64,000 nt of DNA, from the NCBI GenBank assembly GCA_964016885.1, contig OZ024753.1:31558001-31622000 (forward strand), read 5' to 3'. The notes beneath the pieces were generated by a model. That model saw only the letters and a program-made list of their open reading frames with translations. It was not told the origin of the DNA and ran no database searches. Shown here one piece after another: positions 18,121-18,631 of the stretch; positions within the stretch are counted from its first letter, which is position 1, and each line of letters opens with the position of its first letter. The translations under genes were made by a program, and so were the position numbers. The DNA comes from Eledone cirrhosa. Lineage: Eukaryota.

Positions 18121-18165
18121 AATATTGAACTAGTTTCGATGTTGTTACATCTCATCAGCAATATT
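18121..18165 (-). ncRNA. Type I hammerhead ribozyme, unit 1 (GUU site)
   Basis: AAUAUUG CUGAUGA GAUGU-AACA-ACAUC GAAA CUAG UU/ CAAUAUU. Confidence 0.92.
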
Positions 18166-18586
18166 TACCTATCTTCCGGCCTTTCTAGAGAATCGTAAAA
18201 GCACATATCGTTATATGCTTTTTCTATGAAAATTAGTAGTGGGCAGACTAATTTGCATAGAGCGTGAGTACGTAACGGTTCAACGGAGACGATAAAAACA
18301 AATAACGAAACGAAATTAAATTTCGTTTCGTTTGTAACTCACTTTTGTATGACTGACGCTTAAACAATTAAGTTAAAAATGTACATCCACATATGTATAC
18401 TGAAATACTAGTATGCATATGAATACACACACGTATACATATGTAGATGTACCGAGTTTTTCACTGGTCACTTTACTGTGAGTGTCCAGCTATTCTGTAT
18501 GTAAAGAGACAGACAAACCAGTTTTTAGAGTCATACTGGTTTTTGAGGAAACACATTTCCTCTATTCTCCAGAAAGCCAGACAAGG

Positions 18587-18631
18587 AATATTGGACTAGT
18601 TTCGATGTTGTTACATCTCATCAGCAATATT
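18587..18631 (-). ncRNA. Type I hammerhead ribozyme, unit 2 (GUC site)
   Basis: AAUAUUG CUGAUGA GAUGU-AACA-ACAUC GAAA CUAG UC/ CAAUAUU. Confidence 0.93.

Follow-up and report, generated by a model that had tools for sequence, protein, structure and literature searches.

The array and its predicted ribozyme

The window analysed here is a 64,000-nt stretch of the Eledone cirrhosa genome (assembly GCA_964016885.1, contig OZ024753.1, positions 31,558,001-31,622,000 of the forward strand), and it contains a head-to-tail array of 3.8 copies of a 466-bp unit (Table 1). The copies differ pairwise by 2-12 sites; copies 2 and 3 are separated by 2 sites and the other pairs by 5-12, a pattern best read as one local duplication having given rise to the former two. 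Units are numbered in the RNA sense, which is the minus strand, with nt 1 at the base after the predicted cut (window position 18593) and nt 466 at 18128. The unit is non-coding, tandem, 35% GC and not flanked by LTRs, as non-LTR retrozymes are, and the longest stop-free stretch in a concatemer is 57 aa in the sense and 60 aa in the antisense direction. An open reading frame with reverse transcriptase (RT) plus GIY-YIG, as in an autonomous Penelope-like element (PLE), is absent from both unit and insertion. The stub at the right edge of the array is the insertion's second arm, which was barely extended.

Table 1. Features of the insertion and its flanks (window coordinates; nt, unit numbering)
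Feature	Position	Strand	Remarks
Whole insertion	17826..19609	-	Long arm of 3.8 tandem units (17826-19595) plus short inverted stub (19596-19609)
One monomer, 466 nt	18128..18593	-	Bounded by two predicted cut sites; branched fold, no ORF
Type I hammerhead	18121..18164	-	CUGAUGA core 18158-18152; predicted GUU cut between 18128 and 18127
Second hammerhead copy, GUC triplet	18587..18630	-	Rfam HH9, E 2.9e-8, 38.9 bits
Further hammerhead copies	19053-19096 (GUC); 19519-19562 (GUU)	-	Motif
"Tail", nt 229-302	18292..18365	-	Spans gap between the family's two fixed outer ends
14-nt inverted stub, nt 215-228	19596..19609	+	Ends at the family's short end
Candidate 8-nt target-site duplication, left copy	17818..17825	+	Low-complexity AT DNA
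Candidate 8-nt target-site duplication, right copy	19610..19617	+	
Octamer motif ATGCAAAT	18251..18258	-	In stem ~95 nt upstream of core; in 12-nt block common to sister family

Every unit carries on its minus strand a type I hammerhead with a 7-bp stem I, CUGAUGA, a 5-bp stem II and GAAA; stem III is short and palindromic, and the cut triplet is GUC or GUU. The Rfam model Hammerhead_HH9 scores the copy at 18121..18164 at 36.5 bits (E 1.7e-7), below its gathering threshold of 52, because the short stem III is penalised; at gathering scores Rfam finds no match across the window, and the hammerhead is visible by E-value only. A helix III of this short palindromic kind typifies those type I hammerheads of animals that function as dimers (PMC4209133). 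CUGAUGA is unbroken in all 161 distinct full monomers compared and GAAAC in 160, a set to which a few long arrays contribute many members, and stem II shows a compensatory A-U/U-A swap between subfamilies. The plus strand of the unit has neither a hammerhead core nor an Rfam ribozyme, so the both-polarity feature of viroids is absent.

Across the 3.0-Gb genome the two stem II variants of the core have 4,126 and 5,239 exact matches (9,365 together, against 0 for reversed-pattern controls), dispersed over many contigs. A hammerhead present in thousands of genomic units marks the element as a non-LTR retrozyme and not a viroid, an assignment that we hold to be practically certain. The first-pass annotation of this DNA mentions neither the ribozyme, nor its strand, nor a link to Penelope elements. 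Other hammerhead-core-like motifs lie in the window at 20184 (-), 23664 (+), 24094 (-), 36626 (+) and 56630-56730 (both strands), the last of which folds back on itself almost perfectly and carries one core per strand.

The octamer motif ATGCAAAT is a possible, weakly supported snRNA-type promoter element. The notion that it is an essential promoter is weakened by a lineage with three A>G changes across the octamer, two of them inside it, that is present at 7 loci. A sister family, seen at L052:3400-4700 and represented in the window by a fragment at 14021-14380, has a ~433-nt unit of about 54% identity in global alignment, with a CUGACGA core and a GUA triplet. It has retained the core and the 12-nt octamer block, as well as the hairpin that precedes the long end; its circle folds at z -6.2, and among 33 ends listed 13 fall at nt 219-223 and 10 at nt 278-279. 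Matches to an octamer-plus-core pattern number 24,334, both families combined.

Earlier annotation had described the unit as built almost wholly from hairpins. All eight arm pairs that it named, written on the plus strand although the ribozyme and the stronger fold belong to the minus strand, are indeed present in 18128-18593, but only 65% of bases pair, and "almost wholly" was an overstatement. The expectation of a compact fold was borne out on both strands, since neither circular minimum free energy (MFE) was reached by any of 100 dinucleotide shuffles: -125.5 kcal/mol on the plus strand (shuffles -88.5 +/- 6.3, z -5.8) and -146.8 kcal/mol on the minus strand (shuffles -90.4 +/- 6.4, z -8.9). 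By comparison, z ranged from +3.2 to -2.5 in ten control stretches of 466 nt, picked by hand from non-microsatellite parts of the window, and a family copy of ~88% identity gave -9.1 in the sense and -7.2 in the antisense direction. One long stem of the unit is microsatellite-like, and opening the hammerhead core costs 1.5 kcal/mol over the MFE.

Shared variants provide a second view of the structure. With one copy from each of 35 insertions scored on the MFE fold, and variants counted when present in at least 3 insertions, compensatory changes numbered 4 (null 0.96, P 0.015), one-sided changes 12 (null 14.1) and pair-breaking changes 14, fewer than the null of 25.3 +/- 3.1 (0 of 2,000 randomisations). 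Among 26 aligned copies, 7 pairs were changed on both sides versus 5.1 +/- 1.1 in shuffles, a count that 51 of 500 shuffles reached and that is not significant; cell counts and the covariation score exceeded all 500 shuffles and all slid controls, with both statistics inflated by relatedness and the structure taken from one member. An asymmetry in G-U pairs did not separate the strands well. Covariation across genomic copies is modest, and selection on the fold is thus supported but likewise modest.

It could be argued that the unit is neutral satellite or foldback DNA, its hairpins a product of palindromic AT-rich sequence and its spread a matter of DNA-level recombination. The microsatellite-like stem, the modest covariation (those 51 of 500 shuffles) and the evident local amplification all speak for this. 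The catalytic core is nevertheless conserved, the fold and the A>G bias described below are strand-asymmetric, the insertions have fixed internal ends and target duplications and are dispersed over many contigs, and the sister family, at ~54% identity, keeps core, fold and equivalent ends; we find a neutral origin scarcely credible. The first-pass claim of a structured RNA under selection rather than a neutral satellite therefore stands, on the z-scores, the variant counts, the intact hammerhead core and the dispersed fixed-end insertions. Its description of the RNA as viroid-like holds for the fold only. Hammerhead viroids and viroid-like circular RNAs have a comparable size, a branched fold and a hammerhead; unlike them, this family is genome-encoded, carries the ribozyme core on one strand only, leaves retrotransposition footprints and spreads via DNA copies. 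That the RNA is circular is suggested by family precedent together with the copy-wide A>G marks.

Insertion anatomy and a probable Penelope connection

The anatomy of the family was established from 77 insertions, comprising the 24 best BLAST loci, 25 position-ordered matches of one core variant and 28 of the other; a duplicate locus (L084) and the long arrays, which were analysed separately, are outside this tally. Two arms lie head to head in 54 of the 77. Of these, 49 combine an outer end at nt 297-304 with one at nt 226-236, and in the other 5 one end is ragged; an insertion with two ends of the same kind did not occur. Each of the 23 single arms terminates at one or other of these positions, and some of them, the window insertion included, conceal a short inverted stub. 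Three long arrays have the same ends. Inner ends, by contrast with these fixed outer positions, are scattered around the unit. The 302-ends run into TA-type repeats in 56 of 64 cases counted, and contigs from public runs have loose ends at 18292, 18361 and 18366 that likewise run into TA. Target duplications of 8-9 nt were read by eye at four loci (the window, L054, L075 and L260), most flanks being pure TA and so uninformative. For 23 of 35 insertions the nearest sequence to one arm is the other arm, alone or in a tie.

Two sets of diagnostic features are thus found together: dispersed multi-copy insertions with target duplications of more than 4 bp, as in non-LTR retrozymes, and two fixed 3' ends separated by a tail, an inverted 5'-truncated arm and an AT/TA target, as in elements mobilised by PLEs. 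Both arms cross the cut site in 13 of 17 two-ended insertions of the second sample, and the template is therefore not a cleaved linear monomer. Among the mapped insertions no inner (5') end falls exactly at the ribozyme cut. Five inner truncations (L054, L072, L073, L076 and L086) lie 7-14 nt upstream of it, at the base of stem II, which could possibly be a pause site, a weak and post hoc reading. Classical L1 twin priming was rejected, since the two starts are at constant positions and the arms have several rounds of sequence in common. Elsewhere in the window, inverted arms of ~95% identity (20195-20581 and 22124-22573) and a 131-nt palindrome (23603-23733) are probably other PLE-type non-coding insertions.

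Work on PLEs supplies a ready comparison. In AT-rich DNA a PLE enzyme cleaves both strands and extends each of them, and it begins reverse transcription at two adjacent internal RNA sites, the gap between them being the genomic tail (Frangieh et al. 2024, PMC11167929); genomic PLEs show an inverted truncated copy, a tail and a preference for TA (Craig et al. 2021, 10.1101/2021.04.23.441226). The two fixed ends with an inverted arm match these starts and this tail, and the insertions are therefore read as a PLE footprint. The family resembles endonuclease-positive PLEs (PMC11167929; 10.1101/2021.04.23.441226) in its two internal RT starts, tail, inverted 5'-truncated copy and AT/TA targets, as well as in the position of the hammerhead upstream of the start sites; it is unlike them in having no ORF and in that both arms are tandem repeats of one small unit. 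The tail, which includes a 13-bp hairpin at 18304-18333 and may be the region where the RT binds and primes, is ~70 nt long, compared with 30-40 nt in described PLEs and with 80 and 137 nt in PLE-like families of the same genome. Mobilisation of the family by a PLE enzyme is, in our judgement, very probable.

Three such families have been found in this genome, the first two of them young. Family A (window 1614-3715, L092-L121) has a 787-aa ORF from ATG (L118), two ends 137 nt apart and a hammerhead with a stem II of ~120 nt, and its window copy includes an inverted leader piece at ~3580-3715. Family B (window 29234-31070, L147-L174) is a 3,531-bp tandem unit with a 717-aa ORF and many protein-identical copies; its outer ends cluster at two positions separated by 80 nt (14 and 13 of 28), and its leader folds in a hammerhead-like manner around an atypical core, which escaped the pattern search. 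A third, older PLE-like family (window 42984-44340, L202-L221) is broken in the window. These families are called PLE-like on the strength of their tail architecture, of RT and GIY-YIG motifs recognised by eye and of 2,049 homologues, most of them unnamed; Pfam returned nothing on the window fragments, and the PDB nothing on the 717-aa ORF. More PLE families are likely to exist in the genome, each search giving tens of thousands of first-look candidates.

PLEs, too, have a hammerhead, a tail, an inverted arm and TA targets, and the unit might therefore be nothing but the end repeat (pLTR) of an autonomous Penelope element, with the arrays being truncated PLE copies. Yet among the roughly 100 insertions of the family examined, arms longer than one unit run into the previous unit and none into coding DNA, the arrays reach 14, 30, 50 and 137+ units, and the similarity of the unit to the three PLE-like families checked for a partner of matching sequence is at the level of chance or of AT repeats. 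This explanation strikes us as most improbable.

The arrays of 14-137+ units have shared, often periodic variants, which point to local amplification; the idea that all long arrays come from one RT event was rejected for the oldest on these grounds. One array of 137+ units (G000:C5:87617749-87682499) has a higher-order period of ~25 units and another of 50 units (C1:95942344-95966309) a period of ~7-8 units, and each is a retrozyme insertion turning into a satellite. Two further arrays (L258 and L261) are mosaics in which units of two subfamilies are mixed. In L258 the subfamilies change over somewhere from nt ~457 to nt ~70, an interval within which the cut site falls, and such switches could reflect either a template switch or a ligated hetero-multimer.

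Copy-wide A>G marks and the template

Evidence for the nature of the template came from the way variants are distributed among the copies of an insertion. A first count over 51 insertions found A>G in 17 of 37 copy-wide variants versus 15 of 203 single-copy variants, with copy-wide A>G and T>C at 17:10 (P 0.10) before once-per-site counting. A rule was set before a fresh sample of 28 insertions, by which each site was counted once and had to be seen in at most one other insertion. Copy-wide A>G and T>C then stood at 5:0 (P 0.03), the only test fixed in advance. The pooled count, which was not so fixed, was 14:2 (P 0.002), and A>G made up 14 of 29 all-copy variants, compared with 1 of 46 variants present in some but not all copies. 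Single-copy variants (79 insertions, RNA sense) lean the other way, with T>C over A>G at 42:19 and G>A over C>T at 61:38, which suggests the wobble errors of a reverse transcriptase. The contrast between copy-wide and single-copy variants is as expected for editing of one template, and the all-or-none character of the A>G marks fits one circular template.

The most striking marks belong to a lineage with three clustered A>G changes. L235 has 18 complete units over its two arms, which do not differ from one another and all carry these changes in one stem; compared with its nearest kin the lineage has the three A>G plus 1-2 other copy-wide changes, and its units are identical in both arms (7+13 and 17+8). 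The 17-unit run of the triple has no equal elsewhere in the assembly. The triple was not, as had been considered, private to one insertion, being found in 71 matches at 7 loci on five contigs, with one substitution overall apart from one foreign unit in L258, and a single A>G mark at nt 37 recurs in 304 matches. The marks are inherited across loci and therefore need not arise at each insertion. Additional copy-wide A>G changes are superimposed on the lineage marks at L249, L262 and L039. Against the circle reading, the source allele of the marks may be missing, and assembly polishing could have homogenised copies.

The same retrozyme and PLE enzyme could instead have used as template an uncleaved linear multimer transcribed from a source array, with circles as a side product and long arms made by local duplication. 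In vitro, the PLE enzyme worked chiefly on uncleaved RNA (PMC11167929), a point in favour of linear multimers. The weak stem III of the hammerhead, the periodic variants shared in long arrays, the mixing of subfamily units in L258 and L261 and the occurrence of the same A>G marks at several loci are also in its favour. Editing of a multimer, however, should mark some units only, against the 1 of 46 and 14 of 29 given above; nor does a linear template account for the extra layers of copy-wide A>G or for a 17-unit arm without an equally long same-variant source in the assembly. We regard this alternative as unlikely and think a circular template in most insertions reasonably probable. The copy-wide A>G marks likely go back to an RNA circle that was edited and then reverse-transcribed over successive rounds by a Penelope-type enzyme.

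Taken together, these observations favour, with a probability of roughly 0.75, a young, high-copy non-LTR retrozyme that is likely copied into new TA-rich sites by a borrowed PLE enzyme, from monomers that are predicted to self-cleave and likely to circularise. Tandem transcripts would first cleave; a stem III as short and palindromic as this one makes it probable that the hammerheads do so as dimers. A host ligase would close 466-nt circles, the stems of which would be edited by adenosine deaminases. The PLE endonuclease would then cut both strands of a TA repeat ~8 nt apart, and reverse transcription would proceed for several rounds from both DNA ends, with one starting point at nt ~302 and another at nt ~230, both on the same RNA. 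The two cDNAs would be joined head to head, and older arrays would additionally grow by local duplication.

Closed-loop contigs of 495 and 496 nt occur in runs X4 and X5, but tandem DNA gives such loops as well as circles do; the contigs come from 6 runs of unknown kind in which depth is not interpretable. Runs X4, X5 and X6, labelled as three other organisms, contain a near-identical unit at low depth, by carry-over or from a related host.

A bolder idea is that the circles form a self-sustaining, evolving germ-line RNA population, copied from RNA to RNA or much reused, of which the arrays are the fossil record. The same triple A>G across the conserved octamer in seven insertions and >60 units, with a single substitution if one foreign unit is set aside, would be consistent with all seven stemming from one edited molecule, or from RNA descended from it, and with no transcribed DNA copy in between. 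The genomic evidence for the family shows no sign of RNA-to-RNA replication, and thousands of DNA copies argue for a DNA stage in the life cycle. We consider the idea doubtful; if true, this animal's genome would hold the archive, written by a Penelope enzyme, of a viroid-like replicon.

Relation to known retrozymes

Retrozymes of this general type are already known. In the study of metazoan non-LTR retrozymes by Cervera and de la Pena (2020, PMC7229834), mobilisation of circles by PLEs was proposed. The present family is like those elements, especially axolotl HHR_Amex1 and newt satellite 2, in its short tandem non-coding units, GC below 50% and thousands of copies, its type I hammerhead with a weak palindromic helix III, its target duplication of more than 4 bp, and a highly paired predicted circle in which the hammerhead is free to fold. 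Its 466-nt unit is longer than the ~170-400 nt given there, and expression and circles were shown for the earlier families. The main text of that paper, to which its supplement may add, mentions neither arms joined head to head nor two fixed ends nor copy-wide A>G.

Li, Clavereau and Pollet (2026, 10.64898/2026.07.22.740005) treat vertebrate retrozymes as PLE derivatives on the basis of pLTR homology and phylogeny, report cleavage in 1 of 9 predicted Xenopus elements tested, and ascribe tandems to local amplification. PLEs co-occur with the family here as with theirs, the unit length is within their 51-972 bp, and arrays here show the run of two or more adjacent units, each bearing a complete hammerhead, by which they call an element active. 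Unlike in their vertebrate cases, no homologous pLTR was found in the three PLE-like families checked here and the PLE link is the insertion footprint, and, unlike their tandems, both arms are often multi-copy in insertions of zero divergence. The main texts of PMC7229834 and Li et al. describe no two-armed insertions under the term "inverted", although supplements may hold such data or related families; "tail" is absent from the main text of Li et al., and "inverted" from a 2017 review. Our literature search found no paper that shows a tail footprint or copy-wide editing in retrozymes.

The type of element is thus known already, and what the family adds is good genomic evidence for a PLE step that the retrozyme papers, in their main texts, propose without showing, namely that PLE enzymes copy circular RNA into tandem DNA. 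The insertions lend themselves to an in-genome version of the Roll-Seq logic (PMC11331410), in which a change in all copies was in the template and a change in one copy came later. They also indicate a highly processive reverse transcriptase, which may write 8-13 kb from a 466-nt RNA. With a defined template, two mapped start sites and very young insertions, the family makes the mobilisation step of retrozymes testable in vitro.
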